A stretch of 64,000 bases of DNA from Escherichia coli (GTDB taxonomy: Bacteria > Pseudomonadota > Gammaproteobacteria > Enterobacterales > Enterobacteriaceae). The notes under the pieces were generated by a model. That model did no database searches. It saw only the letters and a program-made list of their open reading frames with translations, and was not told the DNA's origin. The DNA lies in NCBI RefSeq assembly GCF_022846255.1, contig NZ_AP025682.1; one strand, written 5' to 3'. Shown here piece after piece: positions 21,463-33,729 of this stretch. The stretch's first letter is position 1. Each line of letters starts with the position of its first letter. The translations under genes and the position numbers were made by a program.

Positions 21463-24400
21463 ATGGGTAAAGGCAGCAGTAAGGGGCATACCCCGCGCGA
21501 AGCGAAGGACAACCTGAAATCCACGCAGTTGCTGAGTGTGATTGATGCCATCAGTGAAGGGCCGGTTGAAGGTCCGGTGGATGGATTAAAAAGCGTGCTG
21601 CTGAACAGTACGCCGGTGCTGGACAGTGAGGGGAATACCAACATCTCCGGTGTCACGGTGGTGTTCCGGGCAGGTGAGCAGGAGCAGACACCGCCGGAGG
21701 GATTTGAATCCTCCGGTTCCGAGACGGTGCTGGGTACGGAAGTGAAATACGACACGCCGATCACCCGCACCATCACGTCGGCAAACATCGACCGTCTGCG
21801 CTTTACCTTCGGTGTGCAGGCACTGGTGGAAACCACCTCAAAGGGGGACAGGAATCCATCGGAAGTCCGCCTGCTGGTTCAGATACAACGTAACGGTGGC
21901 TGGGTGACGGAAAAAGACATCACCATTAAGGGCAAAACCACCTCGCAGTATCTGGCCTCGGTGGTGGTGGATAACCTGCCGCCGCGCCCGTTTAATATCC
22001 GGATGCGCAGGATGACGCCGGACAGCACCACAGACCAGCTGCAGAACAAAACGCTCTGGTCGTCATACACCGAAATCATCGATGTGAAACAGTGCTACCC
22101 GAACACGGCACTGGTCGGCGTGCAGGTGGATTCGGAGCAGTTCGGCAGCCAGCAGGTGAGCCGTAATTATCATCTGCGCGGGCGTATTCTGCAGGTGCCG
22201 TCGAACTATAACCCGCAGACGCGGCAATACAGCGGTATCTGGGACGGAACGTTTAAGCCAGCATACAGCAACAACATGGCCTGGTGTCTGTGGGATATGC
22301 TGACCCACCCGCGCTACGGCATGGGGAAACGTCTTGGTGCGGCAGATGTGGATAAATGGGCGCTGTATGTCATCGGCCAGTATTGCGACCAGTCAGTGCC
22401 GGACGGTTTTGGCGGCACGGAGCCGCGCATCACCTGTAATGCGTACCTGACCACACAGCGCAAGGCGTGGGATGTGCTCAGTGATTTCTGCTCGGCGATG
22501 CGCTGTATGCCGGTATGGAACGGGCAGACGCTGACGTTCGTGCAGGACCGACCGTCGGATAAGGTGTGGACCTATAACCGCAGTAATGTGGTGATGCCGG
22601 ATGATGGCGCGCCGTTCCGCTACAGCTTCAGCGCCCTGAAAGACCGCCATAATGCCGTTGAGGTGAACTGGATTGACCCGAACAACGGCTGGGAGACGGC
22701 GACAGAGCTTGTGGAGGACACGCAGGCCATTGCCCGTTACGGTCGTAACGTCACGAAGATGGATGCTTTTGGCTGTACCAGCCGGGGGCAGGCACACCGC
22801 GCCGGGCTGTGGCTGATTAAAACAGAACTGCTGGAAACGCAGACCGTGGACTTCAGCGTGGGCGCAGAAGGGCTTCGCCATGTGCCGGGCGATGTCATTG
22901 AAATCTGTGATGATGACTATGCCGGTATCAGCACCGGCGGGCGCGTGCTGGCGGTAAACAGCCAGACCCGGACGCTGACGCTCGACCGTGAAATCACGCT
23001 GCCATCCTCCGGCACCACGCTGATAAGCCTGGTTGACGGGCAGGGGAGTCCGGTCAGCGTGGAGGTCCAGTCCGTCACCGACGGTGTGAAGGTGAAAGTG
23101 AGCCGGGTTCCTGACGGAATAGCCGAATACAGCGTGTGGGGGCTGAAGCTGCCGACGCTGCGTCAGCGCCTGTTCCGCTGTGTGAGTATCCGTGAGAATG
23201 ATGACGGCACGTATGCCATCACCGCCGTGCAGCATGTACCGGAAAAAGAAGCCATCGTGGATAACGGGGCACACTTTGACGGCGACCGGAGCGGCACGGT
23301 GAATGGTGTCACGCCGCCAGCGGTGCAGCACCTGACCGCCGAAGTCATTGCAGACAGCGGGGAGTATCAGGTACTGGCCCGCTGGGACACGCCGAAGGTG
23401 GTGAAGGGCGTGAGCTTCCTGCTTCGCCTGACCGTGACAGCGGATGACGGCAGTGAGCGGCTGGTCAGCACGGCCCGGACGACGGAAACCACATACCGCT
23501 TCACACAACTGGCACCGGGGAACTACAGGCTGACAGTCCGGGCAGTAAATGCCCGGGGGCAGCAGGGAGACCCGGCGTCTGTATCGTTCCGGATTGCCGC
23601 ACCGGCAGCACCGTCGCGGATTGAGCTGACGCCGGGTTATTTTCAGATAACCGCCACGCCACATCTTGCGGTTTATGACCCGACGGTACAGTTTGAGTTC
23701 TGGTTTTCGGAAAAGCGGATTGCCGATATCCGGCAGGTTGAAACCACAGCGCGCTATCTTGGCACGGCGCTGTACTGGATAGCCGCCAGTATCAATATCA
23801 GGCCGGGCTATGATTATTATTTTTACGTTCGCAGTGTGAACACCGTTGGCAAATCTGCATTCGTGGAGGCTGTCGGTCAGGCGAGCGATGATGCGGAAGG
23901 TTACCTGGATTTTTTCAAAGGCAAGATAACCGAATCCCATCTCGGCAAGGAGCTGCTGGAAAAAGTCGAACTGACGGAGGGTAACGCCAGCAAACTGGAG
24001 GAGTTTTCGAAAGAGTGGAAGGACGCCATTGATAAATGGAATGCCATGTGGGGCGTCAAAATTGAGCAGACCAGAGACGGCAAACATTATGTCACGGGTA
24101 TTGGTCTCAGCATGGAGGACACGGTGAGCCAGTTTCTGGTTGCCGCTAACCGTATCGCGTTTATTGATCCGGCAAACGGGAATGAAACGCCGATGTTTGT
24201 GGCGCAGGGCAATCAGATATTCATGAACGACGTGTTCCTGAAACGCCTGACGGCCCCCACCATTACCAGTGGTGGAAATCCACCGGCATTTTCCCTGACA
24301 CCGGACGGAAAGCTGACTGCTAAAAATGCGGATATCAGTGGCAGTGTGAATGCGAACGCCGGGACGCTCAACAACGTCACGATAAATGAGAACTGTACGA

Positions 24401-24846
24401 TTAAAGGGAAACTGTCAGCCAATCAGATTGAAGGCGATATTGTCAAAACAGTGGGTAAGGCTTTCCCGCGGGATTCCCGTGCACCGGAGCAGTGGCCATC
24501 AGGGACCATTACCGTCAGAGTCTATGACGATCAGCCTTTTGACCGGCAAATTGTTATTCCCGCGGTGGCGTTTCGCGGAGCTAAACATGAGCGGGAGAAT
24601 AGCGATACTTATTCGTCATGCCGCCTGATAGTGAAGAAAAACGGTGCTGAAATTTATAACCGTACCGCACAGGATAGTACGCTGATTTATACAGGTGTTA
24701 TTGATATGCCTGCAGGCAGTGGCGTAATGACACTGGAGTTTTCTGTATCAGCATGGTGGGTAAATGGTTGGTATCCCACAGCAAGTATCAGCGATTTGCT
24801 GGTTGTGGTGATGAAGAAATCCACTGCAGGTATCACGATTAGCTGA
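21463..24846 (+). CDS. J: Central tail fibre / host-specificity protein gpJ (1127 aa) with a non-lambda C-terminal receptor-binding region
   Basis: Collinear with lambda J to about residue 980; after that the sequence is different and 5 aa shorter overall. Confidence 0.95.
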
Positions 24847-24913: not shown

Positions 24914-25513
24914 ATGCGTAAAGTTTGTGCCGCCATTTTGTCCGCCGCCATCTGTCTGGTCGTATCCGGTGCGCCTGCATGGGCATCTGAGCAGCAGGCC
25001 ACGCTGAGCGCGGGGTATCTTCATGCCCGGACGACCGCTCCCGGTAGCGATAATCTGAACGGGATTAACGTGAAATACCGTTATGAATTTACGGACACGC
25101 TGGGGCTGATTACGTCCTTCAGTTATGCCGACGCCGAAGATGAACATAAAACGCATTACAGCGATACCCGCTGGCATGAAGATTCCGTGCGTAACCGCTG
25201 GTTCAGCGTAATGGCGGGGCCGTCTGTGCGTGTGAATGAATGGTTCAGTGCGTATGCGATGGGGGGTGTGGCTTACAGCCGTGTGTCGACTTTTTCCGGG
25301 GATTATCTCCGCGTAACTGACAACACGGGGAAAACGCACGATGTGCTGACCGGAAGTGATGACGGTCGCCACAGCAACACGTCTCTGGCGTGGGGGGCTG
25401 GCGTGCAGTTTAACCCGACCGAATCCGTGGCCATTGATATTGCTTATGAAGGCTCCGGCAGTGGTGACTGGCGCACTGACGGTTTCATCGTGGGTGTCGG
25501 TTATAAATTCTGA
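24914..25513 (+). CDS. lom: Lom/Ail-family outer-membrane protein (199 aa)
   Basis: Signal peptide, then beta-barrel repeats ending GFIVGVGYKF. Flanked by terminators, the classic lom moron. Confidence 0.92.
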   Translation: MRKVCAAILSAAICLVVSGAPAWASEQQATLSAGYLHARTTAPGSDNLNGINVKYRYEFTDTLGLITSFSYADAEDEHKTHYSDTRWHEDSVRNRWFSVMAGPSVRVNEWFSAYAMGGVAYSRVSTFSGDYLRVTDNTGKTHDVLTGSDDGRHSNTSLAWGAGVQFNPTESVAIDIAYEGSGSGDWRTDGFIVGVGYKF

Positions 25514-25566: not shown

Positions 25567-25577
25567 GTGGGGTGAAT

Positions 25578-28406
25578 ATGGCAGTAAAGATTTCAGGTGT
25601 CCTGAAAGACGGCACAGGAAAACCGGTACAGAACTGCACCATTCAACTGAAAGCCAGACGTAACAGCACCACGGTGGTGGTGAACACGGTGGCCTCTGAA
25701 AATCCGGATGAAGCCGGGCGTTACAGCATGGACGTTGAGTACGGTCAGTACAGCGTTATTCTGTTGGTGGAGGGGTTCCCGCCATCACATGCCGGGACTA
25801 TCACCGTGTATGAAGATTCTCAACCCGGTACGCTGAATGATTTTCTCGGTGCCATGACGGAGGATGATGCCCGTCCGGAGGCACTGCGCCGTTTTGAAGT
25901 GATGGTGGAAGAGGTGGCGCGTAACGCGTCCGCAGTGGCACAGAACACGGCAGCCGCGAAGAAGTCAGCCGGCGATGCCAGCACATCAGCCCGTGAGGCG
26001 GCAACCCATGCGACTGATGCTGCAGACTCAGCACGCGCAGCCAGCACGTCAGCCGGACAGGCCGTGTCGTCGGCTCAGTCAGCGTCTTCCAGCGCAGGAA
26101 CGGCATCAGCAAAGGCCACTGAAGCATCAAAAAGTGCTGCCGCTGCAGAGTCCTCAAAAAGCGCGGCGGCCACCAGTGCCGGTGCGGCAAAAACGTCAGA
26201 AACGAATGCTTCAGCGTCACAACAATCAGCAGCCACTTCTGCATCCACCGCGACTACGAAAGCGTCAGAAGCTGCCACCTCAGCCCGGGATGCGGCGGCC
26301 TCAAAAGAGGCAGCGAAATCATCAGAAACGAACGCATCCTCGAGCGCCAGTAGTTCCGCTTCCTCGGCAACGGCGGCAGGAAATTCCGCGAAGGCGGCAA
26401 AAACGTCCGAGACGAACGCCAGGTCTTCTGAGACGGCAGCGGGACAGAGCGCCTCAGCTGCGGCAGGCTCAAAAACAGCGGCTGCATCATCTGCCAGTGC
26501 CGCGTCAACAAGTGCCGGGCAGGCCTCAGCCAGTGCCACTGCCGCCGGAAAATCGGCAGAAAGCGCTGCATTGTCCGCTTCAACAGCCACAACGAAGGCT
26601 GGCGAAGCCGCTGAACAGGCCAGCGCAGCAGCGAGGTCTGCTTCCGCAGCGAAGACATCCGAAACGAACGCGAAAGCGTCGGAAACCAGCGCAGAATCCT
26701 CAAAAACGGCAGCCGCATCGTCCGCCAGTGCGGCGGCGTCATCGGCATCATCTGCGTCTGCTTCAAAAGATGAGGCGACCAGACAGGCGTCAGCAGCGAA
26801 GGACAGTGCCACGACGGCATCCACGAAGGCGACAGAGGCTGCTGGCAGTGCGACGGCGGCAGCACAGAGCAAAAGTACGGCAGAATCCGCCGCAACGCGC
26901 GCTGAGACAGCAGCAAAACGGGCAGAGGATATTGCATCCGCCGTGGCGCTTGAGGATGCAAGCACGACGAAAAAGGGGGTAGTACAGCTCAGCAGTGCGA
27001 CCAACAGCACTTCCGAGTCACTGGCGGCAACGCCAAAAGCCGTTAAGGCCGCGTATGACCTGGCTAACGGGAAATATACCGCTCAGGACGCTACGACAGC
27101 ACAAAAAGGAATTGTCCAGCTCAGTAGTGCAACCAACAGCGCATCTGAAACGCTTGCTGCGACATCGAAAGCAGTGAAAGCAGCTAATGACAATGCGAAT
27201 GGTCGGGTACCTTCTGCCCGTAAGGTGAATGGTAAGGCGCTTTCAGCGGATATAACACTGACACCGAAAGATATTGGTACGCTTAACTCAACAACTATGT
27301 CATTCAGCGGTGGTGCTGGTTGGTTCAAATTAGCAACGGTAACCATGCCGCAGGCGAGTTCTGTTGTTTCAATTACGTTGATTGGTGGGGCTGGATATAA
27401 CGTCGGTTCACCTCAACAGGCAGGTATATCTGAACTTGTTTTGCGTGCAGGTAATGGTAATCCGAAGGGGATTACTGGTGCTTTATGGCAGCGCACATCG
27501 GCAGGGTTTACAAATTTTGCCTGGGTCAATACATCTGGTGATACTTACGATATTTACGTTGCAATCGGAAATTATGCGACTGGTGTAAATATTCAATGGG
27601 ATTATACCAGTAATGCCAGCGTAACGATTCATACGTCACCAGCATATTCTGCTAATAAGCCGGAAGGGTTAACGGACGGTACAGTTTATTCACTCTATAC
27701 GCCATCAGAGCAGTTTTATCCGCCTGGCGCACCAATCCCGTGGCCATCGGATACCGTTCCGTCTGGTTATGCCCTGATGCAGGGGCAGACTTTTGACAAA
27801 TCTGCCTACCCGAAACTTGCAGTCGCTTATCCGTCAGGCGTGATCCCTGATATGCGTGGCTGGACGATTAAGGGCAAGCCCGCCAGTGGTCGTGCCGTAT
27901 TGTCTCAGGAGCAGGACGGCATTAAATCGCACACCCACAGCGCCAGCGCATCCAGTACGGATATGGGTACGAAAACCACATCGTCGTTTGATTACGGCAC
28001 TAAATCCACGAATAACACCGGGGCGCATACGCACAGTCTGAGCGGCTCTACAAGCTCGGCCGGAGCACACTCGCACGTTGATGGTCGCAGGTTTAATACA
28101 AGCACTTTTAAAGACACCTATCAGTATGGTTCTACAGCTGTCGGAAGTAACTCATACCAGGTACAAGGGGCGGTTGGTCTGGGCATTGGCACGATGGCGA
28201 ATACGAACTCTGCTGGCGCGCATACCCACTCACTGTCCGGCACTGCTGCAAGCGCAGGTGCACACGCACATACTGTCGGTATTGGTGCTCATACGCACTC
28301 CGTTGCGATTGGCTCACATGGACACACCATCACCGTTAACGCTGCTGGTAACGCGGAAAACACCGTCAAAAACATCGCATTTAACTATATTGTGAGGCTT
28401 GCATAA
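25578..28406 (+). CDS. stf: Side tail fibre Stf (942 aa), mosaic
   Basis: The N-terminus [32 protein letters not shown] and the C-terminus ...[18 protein letters not shown] match lambda Stf. It has a long Ala/Ser-rich repeat, two tandem KKG(V/I)VQLSSATNS repeats and a middle domain that is not lambda's. Confidence 0.93.
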
Positions 28407-28990
28407 TGGCATTCAGAATGAGTGAACAAGCACGGACCATAAAAATTTATAATCTGCTGGCCGGAACTAATGAATTTATTGGTGAAGGTGACGCATATAT
28501 TCCGCCTCATACAGGTCTGCCAGCAAACAGTACCGATATTGCACCACCAGATATTCCTGCTGGCTTTGTGGCTGTTTTCAACAGTGATGAGGCATCGTGG
28601 CATCTCGTTGAAGACCATCGGGGTAAAACGGTTTATGACGTAGCGTCAGGGGACGAGTTATTTATTTCTGAACTCGGTCCGTTACCGGAAAATGTTACCT
28701 GGTTATCGCCGGAAGGGGAGTTTCAGAAGTGGAACGGCACAGCCTGGGTGAAAGATGCAGAAGCAGAAAAACTGTTCCGGATCCGGGAGGCGGAAGAAAC
28801 AAAAAACAGCCTGATGCAGGTAGCCAGTGAGCATATTGCGCCACTTCAGGATGCTGTAGATCTGGAAATCGCAACGGAGGAAGAAACCTCATTGCTGGAA
28901 GCCTGGAAAAAGTATCGGGTGTTGCTGAACCGTGTTGATACATCAACTGCACCTGATATTGAGTGGCCTACGAACCCTGTCAGGGAGTAA
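28406..28990 (+). CDS. tfa: Tail fibre assembly protein Tfa (194 aa)
   Basis: [44 protein letters not shown]... matches lambda Tfa. Confidence 0.95.
28825..28968 (+). repeat. Direct repeat copy 1 (144 bp, tfa 3' end)
   Basis: Aligns without gaps to 29874-30017 with about a dozen mismatches. Confidence 0.9.
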
Positions 28991-29044: not shown

Positions 29045-29713
29045 CTATTTTTTCCCTGAAGCGGAAAACATTACTACAGTACCTTGAACCTTGGTTTTAA
29101 CATTCTCGAAATGCTCTGAGAGTATATGTGTTAAGCCTTCTTCGGAATCTTTTGTGTTTGAAAAGATGCCTTTCTGATTGTAAATGCGCATCAGTTTTTG
29201 ACCGAAGCTATTGTGCACAACTCCATCGCCAAGAATTGTGGCTCCGTATAGAGTTCCATCGTCAGTTAAGGCCTGCGCCGCATTGCGTATTACACAGCTT
29301 TTTGTAGATATATTTCCAGGCAGACAGTGAAGAAGGTAAAACATGGAAATGGAATCAAATTGACCATGTAACGCCGCGGGATAAGGTTCAAAAACATCAT
29401 GGTTAATTTTATGTTTAATTTTTGATTCCCCAGCCCTTGTAGATGCCGCGTTCAGGCTAGCTTCGTTCAAATCCATTAAAGATATCAGACTACTCTCAGG
29501 TACGTGAGTAAGGTAAAACCCAGTTCCAACACCAATATCCAGATGGTTGTTACCTAAATGTTCCAGAAAGTGTGGAAGAAGGTGTTCCTTTGTAGGACAT
29601 CCCCATGCAAGCCGATTTGATACTCCCAAAACCCACCAGTCATAAAGCTTTAGGGTAAGTGGTGTGTAAATTTTAGCCCCATCATCTGTGTTTTTTTTCA
29701 TTAATTTCACCAT
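29045..29713 (-). CDS. Class I SAM-dependent methyltransferase, small-molecule type (222 aa; alternative start at 29701)
   Basis: Motif I HLDIGVGTGFYL, post-I LMDLN, motif II FDSISMFYLLHCLP, motif III LTDDGTLYGATI. No DPPY/NPPY or PCQ DNA-methyltransferase motifs. The second ATG has the better GGTGA RBS. Confidence 0.8.
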   Translation of the reverse strand: MVKLMKKNTDDGAKIYTPLTLKLYDWWVLGVSNRLAWGCPTKEHLLPHFLEHLGNNHLDIGVGTGFYLTHVPESSLISLMDLNEASLNAASTRAGESKIKHKINHDVFEPYPAALHGQFDSISMFYLLHCLPGNISTKSCVIRNAAQALTDDGTLYGATILGDGVVHNSFGQKLMRIYNQKGIFSNTKDSEEGLTHILSEHFENVKTKVQGTVVMFSASGKK

Positions 29714-29769: not shown

Positions 29770-30039
29770 ATGCTGCCGCAGCATAGCGATATTGAAATAG
29801 CCTGGTATGCTTCGATACAGCAGGAGCCGAATGGCTGGAAGACCGTCACCACACAGTTCTACATCCAGGAATTCAGTGAGTATATTGCGCCACTGCAGGA
29901 TGCTGTAGATCTGGAAATCGCAACGGAGGAAGAAAGATCGTTGCTGGAGGCATGGAATAAATATCGGGTGTTGCTGAACCGTGTTGATACATCAACTGCA
30001 CCTGATATTGAGTGGCCGGAAGAACCAGACACAATGTAA
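29770..30039 (+). CDS. Chimeric Tfa C-terminal fragment (89 aa)
   Basis: AAGGGG RBS precedes the ATG. The last ~50 aa ([35 protein letters not shown]) duplicate the Tfa C-terminus; the first ~37 aa are unrelated. Confidence 0.5.
29874..30017 (+). repeat. Direct repeat copy 2 (144 bp, inside the tfa-fragment ORF)
   Basis: Aligns to 28825-28968; the two copies bracket the methyltransferase gene. Confidence 0.9.
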
Positions 30040-30376
30040 GCGAAAAAGAAAAACCGCAGACACGACGTATGCAGGACGTGCTGCGGTTGGCTGGTGAACT
30101 TTCGATAGTGCGAGTATTGAATGATTTCCAGCCGTTACCGATTTTACGTATTTTTTGTATGGGAGGATTTGCATCTCCTCCCACCGATCCTCCATGACTT
30201 TACGCCACAGTCTCTAGGACTGCTATGTGCCAATAGCAGACATCCACACAATTATGTAAAATAGGCTAGTGAGTCAGCATTCATGTAGTTCAGACCATCT
30301 ATAGCTGAAATCACGATCGCTTAACAGTGATTCACTCATAACTGCTAGCGAGCAATGTTCTTGTTTGAACCTCAAA

Positions 30377-30405
30377 TTGAAACCACAAAATCGAAAGGTT
30401 AAATA
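30377..30405 (+). promoter_or_regulatory. Candidate sigma70 promoter of the 479-aa cargo gene
   Basis: TTGAAA, a 17-nt spacer, then TAAATA. A GAAGG SD lies at 30422-30426, 7 nt before ATG 30434. Confidence 0.4.
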
Positions 30406-30433
30406 ATCGATTATCCAAATAGAAGGCAATTCA

Positions 30434-31873
30434 ATGGGAAATCACGATTTTATTAAATATATTATATTATTTGGCTTGTCTGGGATAATGTTGGCTATGC
30501 TAGTGCTCTTTATTTCCTCTGTAGCATATTATTTTTTCACCCATAATAAAGGAGTTCTTCAGTATATAATTAAAACTATTTCCATAGGCCTTGTAACTAT
30601 TCCAGTCGCAATAATACTAATCGTTGCACTCGTCCATTATGTTGTCTGGCAAAAAGGGATTTCAACGGCATGGCGTTTTATATTCCACTCGACTAAAACA
30701 ACAACCGTGAATGATATTGCTAATGCTGAATCAGAAGATGTTATTGTTCACCTTGTTCATGGAACATTCGAGACGAATGCATCTTGGACACAACCTGAGT
30801 CAAAAATGTGCAAATCAATTAACTCAAGGAATCCCAATATTGGTATATCTCGATTTAAATGGGATGGCAAAAACTCTGCATCCTCTCGTAAACAAGCGGC
30901 ATATCAATTAGGAATGCATATTGATAACTCTCCTGCAAAATACAATTATATTATTGCACATAGCCATGGGGCAGCTATTGTAAGAGAAATGTCTTATTTA
31001 CGAAGTGATATTGCAAAAAAAATTCAAGGCGTATGTCTTTTGTCACCACCGTTCATCTTTCGACGTAGGATAAAAAGAACGTCAGGTACTTTAATTAATC
31101 TTATTGATATTAGCGGAACTTTGGCCATTCAATTGTTACTTGCAGCACTTTTTGTACCTTTGAATCTATATAATATTAATTATGCAGCAGTAATTTTTTT
31201 TGTTTCAATATTTGCAGAAATTATAATCTCCAAAAAATATAAAAAAGAATTTTTGCAGGAAGTTGAGAGTGGCGAGCACTGTGAAGCGGTTGATTTTAGG
31301 AATGTTGAAATTTATCACGCAATTGGTGATGAAGCCGATTCAGGCCTAAGATTTGTAAGTTCACTTCACGAAGGATGTTTTTCAATTCTTTCCCAGCTAA
31401 AAAAAGCTCAAGTAAGTCATAAAAAGCTAACACATTGGTCAGCAGTTTTAAGCTACCTATTTTATATTTCCATGAGTGTATTAATATGGTTCTTCTATCC
31501 TGAAGAAAAATCATGGATTATAGTATTATTAGTAAGCTTTGTATTAACTTCTATTTCTCACATTTGGCAAAGGTTGAAACCATCAAAGGATGTTCCTCAT
31601 GTTTTACTTATTGCAGCAATACCAGTTGCGATTTTTTCATTTTGGTTGGCTGTAGCTAAGGCCATAGCTTATGGAGATTTGCGATTAATATTTTGCCCGG
31701 AAGTTTTTATTGCATCATCTGAAACTCCAGCTGGAGATCATAAAGTTATTAAATTTGCTCCACAGAATGATGGTATATTAATACACTCAACACACTCGCA
31801 TCCGGAGGCTATAATTAATGTTTCTGAATGGTTATATTGCTCTGAGAATAAAAGGGTAAATGGTGAACCATAG
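30434..31873 (+). CDS. Polytopic membrane protein with alpha/beta-hydrolase (lipase/esterase-like) serine-hydrolase motifs (479 aa); function unknown
   Basis: About 7 hydrophobic helices. Motifs VIVHLVHGTF (HG), IIAHSHGAAIV (nucleophile elbow), VEIYHAIGDEAD (acid strand) and a His-rich tail HSTHSHPE. AT-rich, with its own promoter/SD and downstream hairpins. Confidence 0.75.
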   Translation: MGNHDFIKYIILFGLSGIMLAMLVLFISSVAYYFFTHNKGVLQYIIKTISIGLVTIPVAIILIVALVHYVVWQKGISTAWRFIFHSTKTTTVNDIANAESEDVIVHLVHGTFETNASWTQPESKMCKSINSRNPNIGISRFKWDGKNSASSRKQAAYQLGMHIDNSPAKYNYIIAHSHGAAIVREMSYLRSDIAKKIQGVCLLSPPFIFRRRIKRTSGTLINLIDISGTLAIQLLLAALFVPLNLYNINYAAVIFFVSIFAEIIISKKYKKEFLQEVESGEHCEAVDFRNVEIYHAIGDEADSGLRFVSSLHEGCFSILSQLKKAQVSHKKLTHWSAVLSYLFYISMSVLIWFFYPEEKSWIIVLLVSFVLTSISHIWQRLKPSKDVPHVLLIAAIPVAIFSFWLAVAKAIAYGDLRLIFCPEVFIASSETPAGDHKVIKFAPQNDGILIHSTHSHPEAIINVSEWLYCSENKRVNGEP

Positions 31874-31910
31874 ATTAATATAACCACCATAAATTAATTT
31901 GTAATATACT

Positions 31911-31931
31911 TCCCTGCTAAATTCGCAGGGG
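31911..31931 (+). terminator. Weak hairpin downstream of the cargo gene
   Basis: CCCTGC-TAAATTC-GCAGGG with no clear T tract. Confidence 0.3.
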
Positions 31932-31943
31932 AGTATAAAAATA

Positions 31944-31977
31944 TACTAACTCAGTGGAGTCTTGTGCTGAGTTAGTA
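31944..31977. other. 11-bp perfect-stem hairpin (12-nt loop) of unknown role
   Basis: TACTAACTCAG-TGGAGTCTTGTG-CTGAGTTAGTA with no T tract on either strand. Confidence 0.5.
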
Positions 31978-32335
31978 CATGTTAACAAGATATTTATTCA
32001 CCACTAAATAATTAGCTAGAACAATAAGAATAATTTTGGGCAGTAAAGACAGGATGTAAACTACACTTATTCCAGTATGTTGGTTATCGTAGTTATATAT
32101 GATGAGCTCTAAAGTCCGCTTCTCGCTCATAACAGACATTCACTACAGTTATAGTAGAAGGTATGCATGCTGAGTGGGGAAAGTGTGAAAGAAAAGAAGA
32201 CTGCTGCGTCGTTTGTCGTCACGTTTATCTTCATTGGTTATGCAAGTAGTAATACAAGATGGGACAAAACTGAGGCACACATAGCTTTGTACTGGATTGC
32301 TAGGCTTTGTGCTCTTCGATAGTGGTTAAGGTGGA

Positions 32336-33493
32336 TCACTCCACCTTTTCATCAATCCAGTCCGCCCACCATTGCATCATTTCTCTGCGTTTATCGAGAT
32401 ACTGAGCATGGTTGTAAATCCCACGCACAGATCCGCCGTTGGCATGTGCCAGTTGCACTTCAATAGCGTCAGCAGGCCATTCGTGCTCGTTCATAATTGT
32501 GCTGAATTCATGCCTGAATCCGTGACCGCTTTCCAGACCCTCATAGCCGATTTGTTTGATCACAAGCAATACCGCGTTCTCGCAGATTGGCTTCTTCTTA
32601 TCGTTGCGCCCGGCAAAAACAAACTCTGATACTGGTTTAGTGATGGAGCTTAGCGTAGTGAGAAGTTCAACCACCTGGTCTGACATAGGAACAACATGAA
32701 TCTTGCGGCCCTTCATCACACTGGCGTCGATAGTGATAATCCTGTTTTCAAAATCGACGTTCTTCCATTGCATGGAGCGAAGCTCTTTCGTTCTTAGGGC
32801 TGTGTAGCGTAAAACTTTGGTCGCAATGAGCGATATGATGCTTCCTGAAAATGTTGCCAGTGCTTTGTTGAATGCAGGGATCTGGTCTGCTGGGAGAAAC
32901 GGGAAGTTCTTCTTGCGGTATCCCTTCATGGCGTCAGCAAGGTCAGGTGCCGGGTTATATTTAGCCCTACCAGTGACAATAGCGTAACGGAAAACCTCGC
33001 CGCATCTTCTGCGGGCTTTGTTGGCTCGCTCCATTGCACCGCGATCTTCAAATCTGCGGATTACTTCCAGCAGTTGCATCGGCTCAATATCCTGAATTTC
33101 AAGGCCGCCGATGATAGGTAAAATGTCGTCATCAAACATTTTTGCAAGTTCAGTTGCATAGCCTACTGACCAGACTTGCTTCTTGTGCTCGTACCATTCC
33201 TTGTAAATCGCACTAAAGGAATTGTTGTTAGACGAAGCCTTTTTCGCTTTTACCGGATCGATGCCAACCGAGATGTCTTTCCTCGCGGTCCATGCTTTAT
33301 CTCTTGCCTCCTGCAAAGTCATTAGCGGATATTTTCCTACGGTCAGGATTTTCTCCTTACCGTCAATCTTGTAGCGAAGCTGCCATACCTTTTTCCCTGA
33401 CACAGGGACATAAAGGTACAGGCCATTACCATCGAGTAGGCGGTATGGTTTTTCTTTCGGCTTTGCTGCTTCAATCTGCTTAACGGTGAGCAT
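32336..33493 (-). CDS. intS: Tyrosine integrase IntS (KplE1/CPS-53 type, 385 aa)
   Basis: ATG 33493 gives MLTVKQIEAAKPKEKPYRLLDGNGLYLYVPVSGKKVWQLRYK.... Near-identical to my recollection of K-12 IntS; the C-terminal catalytic region has HGFRH and an RGIYNH tyrosine region. Confidence 0.95.
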   Translation of the reverse strand: MLTVKQIEAAKPKEKPYRLLDGNGLYLYVPVSGKKVWQLRYKIDGKEKILTVGKYPLMTLQEARDKAWTARKDISVGIDPVKAKKASSNNNSFSAIYKEWYEHKKQVWSVGYATELAKMFDDDILPIIGGLEIQDIEPMQLLEVIRRFEDRGAMERANKARRRCGEVFRYAIVTGRAKYNPAPDLADAMKGYRKKNFPFLPADQIPAFNKALATFSGSIISLIATKVLRYTALRTKELRSMQWKNVDFENRIITIDASVMKGRKIHVVPMSDQVVELLTTLSSITKPVSEFVFAGRNDKKKPICENAVLLVIKQIGYEGLESGHGFRHEFSTIMNEHEWPADAIEVQLAHANGGSVRGIYNHAQYLDKRREMMQWWADWIDEKVE

Positions 33494-33654
33494 GGGTAAA
33501 AATCCGGTGGGTAAAATTATTTTATCCACTTTTTACCCGTCATGGAGTGCGGCTGTCAACGATCTGACGCGAACCATTACGAACTGTGAATCTACGGAAG
33601 GCTTGATATTCAGGGGATTTTGCGGACTGGTACGGATGGGAGCGAACTGATAAA
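33494..33654. promoter_or_regulatory. attL arm and intS promoter region
   Basis: Lies between the intS start and the argW 3' end. GGGTAAAA occurs at 33494-33501 and 33509-16, with an inverted TTTTACCC at 33531-38; these are candidate recombinase/RDF binding repeats. Confidence 0.5.
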
Positions 33655-33729
33655 TGGTGTCCCCTGCAGGAATCGAACCTGCAATTAGCCCTTAGGAGGG
33701 GCTCGTTATATCCATTTAACTAAGAGGAC
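33655..33729 (-). tRNA. argW: tRNA-Arg (anticodon CCU)
   Basis: The reverse complement reads GTCCTCTTAGTTAAATGGATATAACGAGCCCCTCCTAAGGGCTAATTGCAGGTTCGATTCCTGCAGGGGACACCA: 75 nt, cloverleaf-compatible, CCA end. Confidence 0.95.

Follow-up and report, generated by a model that had tools for sequence, protein, structure and literature searches.

What does a solitary, AT-rich gene lodged between the tail-fibre and integrase regions of an Escherichia coli prophage contribute to its carrier, and by which means has it come to lie there? The question is raised by a 64-kb stretch of E. coli DNA (64,000 nucleotides of NCBI RefSeq assembly GCF_022846255.1, contig NZ_AP025682.1), here called the window, in which an uninterrupted open reading frame (ORF) with an ATG start occupies positions 30434..31873 of the plus strand and encodes 479 amino acids. 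A first-pass annotation, made from the sequence letters, had read it as a self-contained prophage gene for a polytopic membrane protein resembling serine hydrolases, and had proposed a role in defence, exclusion or envelope modification. By our comparative analysis, the gene encodes an uncharacterised membrane-threaded serine hydrolase and is a credible candidate defence gene. It lies in a mobile cassette, whose ends coincide with short hairpin motifs also found beside other defence genes.

Results

Predicted fold and active site

The motifs on which the hydrolase assignment had been based are found at the residues originally given, namely VIVHLVHGTF at 103-112, IIAHSHGAAIV at 173-183, VEIYHAIGDEAD at 291-302 and HSTHSHPE at 451-458. 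An AlphaFold2 (AF2) model was calculated from an alignment of 38 homologues (pLDDT 85.6, pTM 0.80). Its strands cover residues 103-108, 136-141, 170-176 (followed by the nucleophile elbow), 197-203, 291-296, 424-429 and 437-441, and its helices residues 2-36, 38-83, 218-240, 248-279, 300-354 (55 residues), 360-381, 389-413 and, finally, 457-475. The modelled chain thus runs from an N-terminal helix pair through a beta/helix core with the elbow to a hydrophobic hairpin after strand 197-203, and from there through strand 291-296, three helices and strands 424-429 and 437-441 to the last helix. A central beta-sheet flanked by helices in canonical strand order, with beta5 leading into the nucleophile elbow and beta3 into an HG oxyanion motif, is the arrangement of the alpha/beta-hydrolase fold, so that the fold proposed in the first-pass annotation is borne out by the model. 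Foldseek comparison with the PDB is consistent with a hydrolase fold, none of the solved chains spanning the full architecture (TMq <= 0.24), and a search of BFVD returned generic hydrolases only. When the profile of the transmembrane-spliced domain (A2) was compared with the PDB and with Bacillus subtilis LipA (the latter with an approximate query sequence) with the aim of locating the acid and the histidine, only the nucleophile region was aligned.

Profile searches align A175-H-S177-H-G179 and H109-G110 with the GHSFGG/AHSRGG and IHG motifs of the solved structures 6tj2 and 7x2p. AHSHG had therefore been recognised rightly as a nucleophile elbow like those of solved hydrolases; the serine is Ser177, however, and not Ser176 as first numbered. 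In an alignment of 115 superfamily sequences, fifteen residues are 100% conserved: H109, G110, T111, W118, W143, G145, N147, R152, H176, S177, H178, P206, D299, E300 and H451. Asp299 stands after strand 291-296 (beta7), and His451 between strands 424-429 and 437-441 on one side and the last helix on the other. Because Ser177, Asp299 and His451 are invariant and the candidate alternatives are not, the predicted catalytic triad is Ser177-Asp299-His451, complemented by the HG oxyanion motif (109-110); in the coding sequence Ser177 stands in AHSHG, Asp299 in GDEA and His451 in HSTHSH. Of the two acidic residues earlier considered, Asp299 is thus retained and the unconserved Asp302 dropped. His312, His329 and His334, the histidines originally suggested, are rejected as the catalytic residue, as is His454, none of them being conserved in this alignment. 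The assignment of His451 also changes the view of the last 65 residues, which had been described as a tail: as they carry the predicted catalytic histidine, they are better regarded as part of the fold, to which they are modelled to supply beta8, this histidine and the last helix.

Beyond the triad, the family has invariant motifs of its own: W143-x-G145-x-N147-x4-R152 (window positions ~30860-30889), H176 and H178 flanking the nucleophile (residues 176-178 at approximately 30959-30967) and E300 next to Asp299.

Membrane topology

Hydropathy analysis delimits seven hydrophobic segments (~10-33, 48-72, 219-240, 248-267, 335-354, 360-381 and 389-413), which agree with the AF2 helices and with the hydrophobic helices noted at first. 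In sum, hydrophobic helices add ~250 residues within and around the hydrolase fold. The transmembrane hairpin follows beta6 in the model and hence occupies the lid position, as had been anticipated. On the domain side, the loops carry a strong positive charge (RRRIKR ahead of segment 219-240, KKYKK behind segment 248-267 and KKAQVSHKK ahead of segment 335-354), and the short connecting loops a negative charge or none; the bias is kept across the 38 homologues. From this charge distribution the catalytic domain is predicted to be cytoplasmic, in line with the positive-inside argument of the first-pass annotation.

Family membership

The hydrolase is without a characterised family, as far as sequence searches tell. 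No significant match was found in Pfam, NCBIfam, PHROG or PADLOC, which agrees with the earlier statement that the protein belongs to no recognised family. Matches are confined to sub-threshold alpha/beta-hydrolase hits around residues 161-229: DUF676, PGAP1, Abhydrolase_6, Hydrolase_4 and Ser_hydrolase all stay below their gathering thresholds, the best for the protein of the window being Ser_hydrolase with 19 bits against a cut-off of 22. The homologues, too, give marginal Pfam hits only. Copies of the gene are annotated in their sources as "hypothetical protein" or with generic names, and neither the protein nor the end motifs presented below are described in the literature, as far as searches by accession, motif sequence and key words show.

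When 1.84 billion cluster representatives were searched exhaustively with a profile, 5,513 clusters were collected at E <= 0.001, of which 2,652 (counted at 50% identity) reached E <= 1e-10. The superfamily consists of a small core family and a much larger set of relatives of 400-470 amino acids that lack the N-terminal helix pair. These relatives (P0104-P0340) come mostly from metagenomes, from Verrucomicrobia, Gemmatimonadota, Sphingomonadales and others, and display the same layout of a hydrolase with inserted transmembrane helices. Their annotations are generic only (lipase, lysophospholipase, alpha/beta hydrolase). The one distant superfamily member whose surroundings were examined lies in an island bounded by an integrase.

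Distribution and genomic contexts

The gene is very rare. It is present in one of 5,426 complete E. coli genomes and in 7 of 185,579 species-representative genomes, and it is absent from all 50,697 phage records searched. Three IMG/VR contigs carry it. Among 72,556 plasmids there is one full-length, near-identical copy, three further plasmids giving weak partial matches only. Judged by this sporadic distribution and by its AT-rich composition, it is not a housekeeping gene; the contexts described below are mobile elements and islands, a Kluyvera/Klebsiella clade excepted.

The first-pass annotation had asked whether the gene is always situated between a tail-fibre assembly gene (tfa) and the integrase gene (int). 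It is not: besides the lambdoid tfa-int slot of the window, it is found in P2 slots, in an integrative and conjugative element (ICE), on a plasmid and in genomic islands. In one P2-like prophage (locus L001 of our collection) it lies between tail-fibre assembly gene G and sheath gene FI, a slot which we take to be the fun locus of the P2 map. The P2 fun locus has been called a second defence-enriched locus of P2 (Vassallo et al. 2022, PMC9519451). Another copy occupies the P2 slot between S and V (orf30; L029). In an E. coli island it stands between a Mokosh-like helicase gene and a complete Shango system (L002), in a Pectobacterium ICE beside Gabija (L016), and in a Burkholderia pseudomallei island together with type I restriction-modification, PDC-S35 and PDC-S28 (L010). 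A Proteus island shares it with an anti-phage signalling system based on cyclic oligonucleotides (CBASS; L018), two Klebsiella michiganensis islands with DRT8 (L031) and PD-T7-3 (L005), and in Scandinavium it is near PD-Lambda-1 (L033); the plasmid copy is on a Salmonella IncFIB plasmid (L020). In seven contexts a PADLOC-positive neighbour (Shango, Gabija, CBASS, DRT8, PD-T7-3, PD-Lambda-1 or a PDC family) is less than 5 kb away. The gene itself is solitary everywhere, and as no neighbour is conserved from one context to another, it presumably acts alone.

A mobile cassette and its ends

In the window the gene and its own upstream and downstream regions constitute a mobile, AT-rich cassette of ~1.9 kb (30222..32137, plus strand). 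The compositional contrast reported at first is real, G+C being 0.30-0.37 over ~30200-32150 versus 0.45-0.63 in the flanking tail-fibre and integrase DNA. The cassette recurs at 97-99.6% identity in the P2-like prophage L001, the E. coli defence island L002, the Salmonella plasmid L020, an IMG/VR contig (L028) and the K. michiganensis island L031, and at 84-87% identity in the Pectobacterium ICE L016, the Proteus island L018 and a Scandinavium locus (L021). Across these unrelated backbones its ends agree to within a few bases. Homology with all other contexts begins, on the left, at a degenerate copy of a motif that we call hairpin B (30217..30241, plus strand; GGACTGCTATGTGCCAATAGCAGAC, the full form being GTCCGCTCCGTGCCAnnAGCGGAC), and intact hairpin B opens the cassette in L001, L028 and L031. 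On the right, it stops at the 25-nt hairpin A (32113..32137, plus strand; AGTCCGCTTCTCGCTCATAACAGAC), with the consensus GTCCGCT-yy-TCGCTCA-nn-GCGGAC.

Between successive cargo genes of islands and prophages the two motifs are joined in a full junction, composed of hairpin A, ~18 nt (CTTCnGCTCAG...) and hairpin B. Examples are L031 7742-7808, L021 8565-8630, L022 4451-4520 and L002 3945-4010, with further copies in L038-L087. In 0.66 Mb of fetched loci there are 54 copies of the motif with at most 6 mismatches in 25 positions, against a chance expectation that we estimate at ~0.15, and 52 of them are on the strand of the hydrolase gene. The exact junction pattern was found in 50 IMG/VR prophage contigs, several copies being in the P2 G-FI slot. 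It is also present, in 1-4 places each and always intergenic, in the islands and prophages of 1,609 of the 5,426 complete E. coli genomes (~30%). Five of nine genes directly upstream of junctions match PADLOC (PD-T7-1 twice, PDC-S50, DarG and a retron reverse transcriptase), and the cassettes flanked by the junction element include PD-T7-1, DarG, the retron reverse transcriptase, DRT8, PD-T7-3 and PD-Lambda-1. From this arrangement, hairpins A and B may be recombination handles for the exchange of defence cassettes, which could proceed by relaxed homologous recombination or by a site-specific enzyme acting in trans.

Known elements of comparable appearance were considered. The ends are not those of integron gene cassettes, for which an attC site with R''/L''/L'/R' boxes and crossover at G|TTRRRY would be expected: they are GTCCGCT...GCGGAC hairpins without GTTRRRY, and no IntI gene occurs in the neighbourhoods. 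A doublet of palindromes is reminiscent of repetitive extragenic palindromes (REPs) and of REP doublets forming hairpins (REPINs), but those number tens to hundreds of copies per genome, and 1-4 places per genome in 1,609 of the 5,426 genomes speak against both. Nor does hairpin A represent a translation start that has been conserved (minus strand, MSEKRT), for the ORFs are short and unrelated beyond the motif, and a start codon is missing from many copies. The stems of both hairpins are conserved in sequence and show no covariation beyond that of shuffled alignments, and Rfam has no match in the cassette or in the junction element.

Two further observations concern the surroundings of these ends. 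Of the 5,426 E. coli genomes, 1,887 share, at ~82-89% identity, a segment of ~210 bp leading from the cassette towards the integrase gene (32098-32308), which starts with hairpin A; in these genomes it lies at the chromosome-proximal end of prophages whose insertion sites differ (pao, tor, dacD). In the P2-like G-FI slot, inverted repeats of the backbone, ATCTGACA ... TGTCAGAT (L001 11985-12000 and 13917-13930; also L043, L045, L058 and L077), enclose the cargo together with its hairpins B and A, so that the slot has dyad symmetry.

Expression signals and hairpins around the gene

A Shine-Dalgarno sequence, GAAGG, is read at 30422-30426 (plus strand), 7 nt before the ATG, exactly as annotated at first, and AAGG is kept in most copies of the cassette. 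The promoter proposed there paired TTGAAA with TAAATA (30400-30405). Both hexamers are present, but TAAATA fails the criteria of our scan. AATAAT at 30402-30407 is the likelier -10 element because ATAAT is an invariant block in seven aligned cassette copies (75-99% identity), with TATAAT in L029. The putative sigma-70 promoter (30377..30407, plus strand) would accordingly consist of TTGAAA (30377-30382), 19 nt and AATAAT. In a simple consensus scan, promoter-like sites are no commoner than in shuffled sequence (6 found, 9.2 expected).

Downstream of the stop codon, the plus strand has two strong hairpins. The first (31905..31937) has a 13-bp stem including CCCTGC/GCAGGG and is conserved within the cassette; the second (31944..31977) is formed by TACTAACTCAG ... 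CTGAGTTAGTA. Folding of 31870-32000 yields -40.8 kcal/mol (z = -6.4). The hairpins noted in the first-pass annotation are real, but their reading as intrinsic terminators is unsupported: the U-tract is absent at both, and neither is called terminator-like.

An ORF of 52-55 amino acids (31972-32139, minus strand), convergent with the hydrolase gene, starts inside hairpin A and has a hydrophobic C-terminal half. We rejected it as a candidate immunity or toxin partner, because L001, L028 and L031 have lost the start codon and the L021 cassette, 87% identical, carries only a truncated version. Since it is not conserved in diverged copies of the cassette, it is probably not a gene.

Prophage setting

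According to Pfam and tRNA scans, the hydrolase gene belongs to a lambdoid prophage at tRNA-Arg(CCT). The lambdoid tail region comprises gpJ (21463-24846), Lom (24914-25513), a side tail fibre gene (25572-28406) and an intact tfa (28406-28990, plus strand). On the other side of the cassette there are a tyrosine integrase gene (32336-33529, minus strand) and the tRNA gene (33655-33729, minus strand), beyond which lie a gene of the formate/nitrite transporter family and then mlaA. A second moron is wedged, antisense, between the intact tfa and a duplicated 3' fragment of it (29770-30039, plus strand): a gene for a class-I S-adenosylmethionine-dependent methyltransferase of 222 amino acids (29045-29713, minus strand; G+C ~0.40). 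At 115.4 bits, the stretch 29793-29996 within the fragment stays just below the gathering score of Rfam IS009 (117).

The int-proximal slot had been described as a variable cargo locus, and related E. coli prophages indeed hold other cargo there, namely a DUF262 protein, an AAA ATPase with an HNH nuclease, and acyltransferases. The hydrolase gene, compositionally distinct, placed in a variable slot of otherwise conserved prophages and present also on other mobile elements, has the features of a prophage moron or defence-hotspot cargo.

Discussion

Relation to known systems

Among the closest known systems are the minimal alpha/beta-hydrolase lipases and esterases, such as Lip_vut1 (6nkc), B. 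subtilis LipA (1isp/1t4m), a Streptomyces lipase (5h6g) and a Pseudomonas carboxylesterase (1auo). These are soluble or secreted proteins of 170-250 amino acids, to which the hydrolase described here adds its hydrophobic helices; overall sequence identity is <=15%, and significant membership in a Pfam family is lacking. Legionella pneumophila RavL (7x2p, a putative lipase) and the DUF676/PGAP1-like esterases are further systems for comparison, the respective Pfam scores all being below gathering thresholds. In PGAP1 the transmembrane helices come after a luminal lipase domain, whereas here they interrupt the fold and the domain is predicted to be cytoplasmic.

Three defence systems offer partial parallels. 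The first-pass annotation had pointed to a gene pair, a hydrolase plus 3-TM, among the defence systems of P2/P4 hotspots. It exists: Rousset et al. 2022 described, in P4 hotspots, a system of a HAD-like hydrolase and a separate transmembrane protein, which was shown to protect against T7 (PMC9122126; "Rst_Hydrolase-3Tm" in DefenseFinder). Like the gene studied here, it couples a hydrolase to transmembrane helices and is located in a hotspot of phages or satellites. Identity with it is rejected, since that system is HAD-like and has two genes, unrelated in fold to the alpha/beta-hydrolase encoded here by a single ORF with no conserved neighbour. CapV, the patatin-like abortive-infection phospholipase of CBASS, could resemble our protein in its logic, if hydrolysis of membrane lipid is the killing or blocking step, a parallel that we offer as conjecture (the logic of phospholipase CBASS is restated in PMC13092281). 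CapV, however, is a soluble protein of patatin fold whose activation depends on a cyclic nucleotide supplied by a partner cyclase, whereas here there is a single polytopic protein without a partner. Lastly, protease-activated alpha/beta-hydrolase zymogens have been reported as lipase-like defence effectors of unknown substrate (bioRxiv 2025.11.14.688446, PMC12642450). They are soluble, activated by cleavage and always linked to a protease; no protease gene is near the hydrolase gene, and the analogy is a functional one only.

Proposed function

The reading that we tentatively prefer, and regard as plausible, is that of a stand-alone inner-membrane serine hydrolase of lipase/esterase type with a role against phages or other mobile genetic elements, the defence part being suggested by genomic association. 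Its alpha/beta-hydrolase core would lie on the cytoplasmic face of the inner membrane, and the polypeptide would leave this core twice for the membrane, in the lid hairpin after beta6 and in a second excursion between beta7 and beta8, with the two N-terminal helices as a further anchor. In this layout the active site would face the bilayer, so that its likely substrate would be an ester bond in a membrane lipid of the inner leaflet or in a lipid-linked molecule. The transmembrane bundle might be anchor and substrate gate, and possibly a sensor. Carried with its promoter-like region in the defence-cargo slots of prophages, ICEs, plasmids and genomic islands, the gene would be expressed from the lysogen and protect it, or the host of the respective element, against incoming phage. 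Upon infection, hydrolysis of membrane lipid would lead to membrane collapse (abortive infection) or to a block of genome entry.

Several points weigh against this proposal. Seen from the neighbouring genes, a defence role is suggestive and comes by association, and PADLOC-DB v2.0.0 holds no family matching the protein, its sole hit being a spurious one to Cas6 (E = 0.046). The slots that hold the gene also carry lysogenic-conversion genes, for example acyltransferases. In the Kluyvera/Klebsiella clade (39% identity) the gene is a singleton between fdh and lacI, without mobile or defence neighbours. A constitutive membrane lipase would be toxic, and we identified no regulatory element or trigger. 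There is, finally, a problem of parity if all three hydrophobic segments within residues 331-414 are assumed to span the membrane: because beta7 and beta8 belong to one domain, one of the segments between them cannot cross. Candidates for the non-crossing segment are the amphipathic helix 360-381 (hydrophobic moment 1.24) and helix 389-413, which has the highest conservation (mean column identity 0.72); we infer that helix 389-413 lines a path from the bilayer to the active site.

The Kluyvera clade among metabolic genes, and the size of the wider superfamily (5,513 clusters at E <= 0.001) with its generic annotations, would fit an accessory fitness or virulence gene that is unrelated to phages and hitch-hikes in cargo slots, with lipid remodelling, ester detoxification or acyl-thioester hydrolysis as its activity. 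We consider such a gene unlikely in view of the extremely sporadic distribution, the recurrent placement next to seven different defence systems and the recent movement of the cassette between unrelated mobile elements.

Of somewhat lower probability still is a lysogenic-conversion esterase or deacylase that blocks phage adsorption by acting on an envelope glycolipid (lipopolysaccharide (LPS), lipid A, enterobacterial common antigen) or on a lipid-linked precursor. A membrane-embedded esterase could work on lipid-linked intermediates, the tfa-int/att slot of related prophages also holds acyltransferases of O-antigen type (L036), and the prophage CPS-53 of K-12 has gtr-like genes at this site. 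The charge distribution, however, puts the catalytic domain in the cytoplasm, which disfavours direct periplasmic modification of LPS; a glycosyltransferase or flippase partner is never adjacent, and elsewhere the neighbours are intracellular defence systems, with no surface-modification genes among them.

That the protein is a toxin-like addiction, exclusion or interbacterial-competition module, whose lipase toxicity stabilises the element or hits competitors, appears very improbable: lipase effectors are common as toxins and the gene occurs on an IncFIB plasmid and in an ICE, but a conserved antitoxin or immunity partner is missing (the one small ORF that could be considered, at 31972-32139, is not preserved in the copy with 87% identity). 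The protein also lacks a secretion signal, secretion-system genes are not adjacent, and, being polytopic, it is not exportable.

Conclusions

The preferred reading of a membrane-anchored defence hydrolase can be combined with that of the cassette ends. The hydrolase would then represent a new one-gene class of defence, a membrane-threaded lipase that is sensor and effector at once: its transmembrane bundle would sense an infection-induced perturbation of the membrane, and the enzyme would thereupon hydrolyse inner-leaflet lipid. At the same time, its cassette would be one unit of a system, not described so far, in which defence genes of enterobacterial mobile elements have hairpin B on their 5' side and hairpin A on their 3' side, and these motifs, as recombination handles, would let the genes swap among prophages, ICEs, plasmids and islands. 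That both parts hold together we regard as doubtful.

The processes by which defence genes are swapped between mobile elements "still need to be elucidated", as has been stated for the P2/P4 hotspots (Pfeifer-type analysis, NAR 2026, PMC13586616). Our observation that homology to one cassette breaks off, in more than eight contexts, exactly at a short repeated element which also flanks other defence genes bears on this question. Should a phenotype be confirmed, the hydrolase would be a new single-protein determinant of defence or exclusion, in which the lid and the beta7-beta8 connection of the fold are replaced by transmembrane helices, and it would provide the first functional handle on a family of more than 2,600 clusters (50% identity, E <= 1e-10) without a characterised member.

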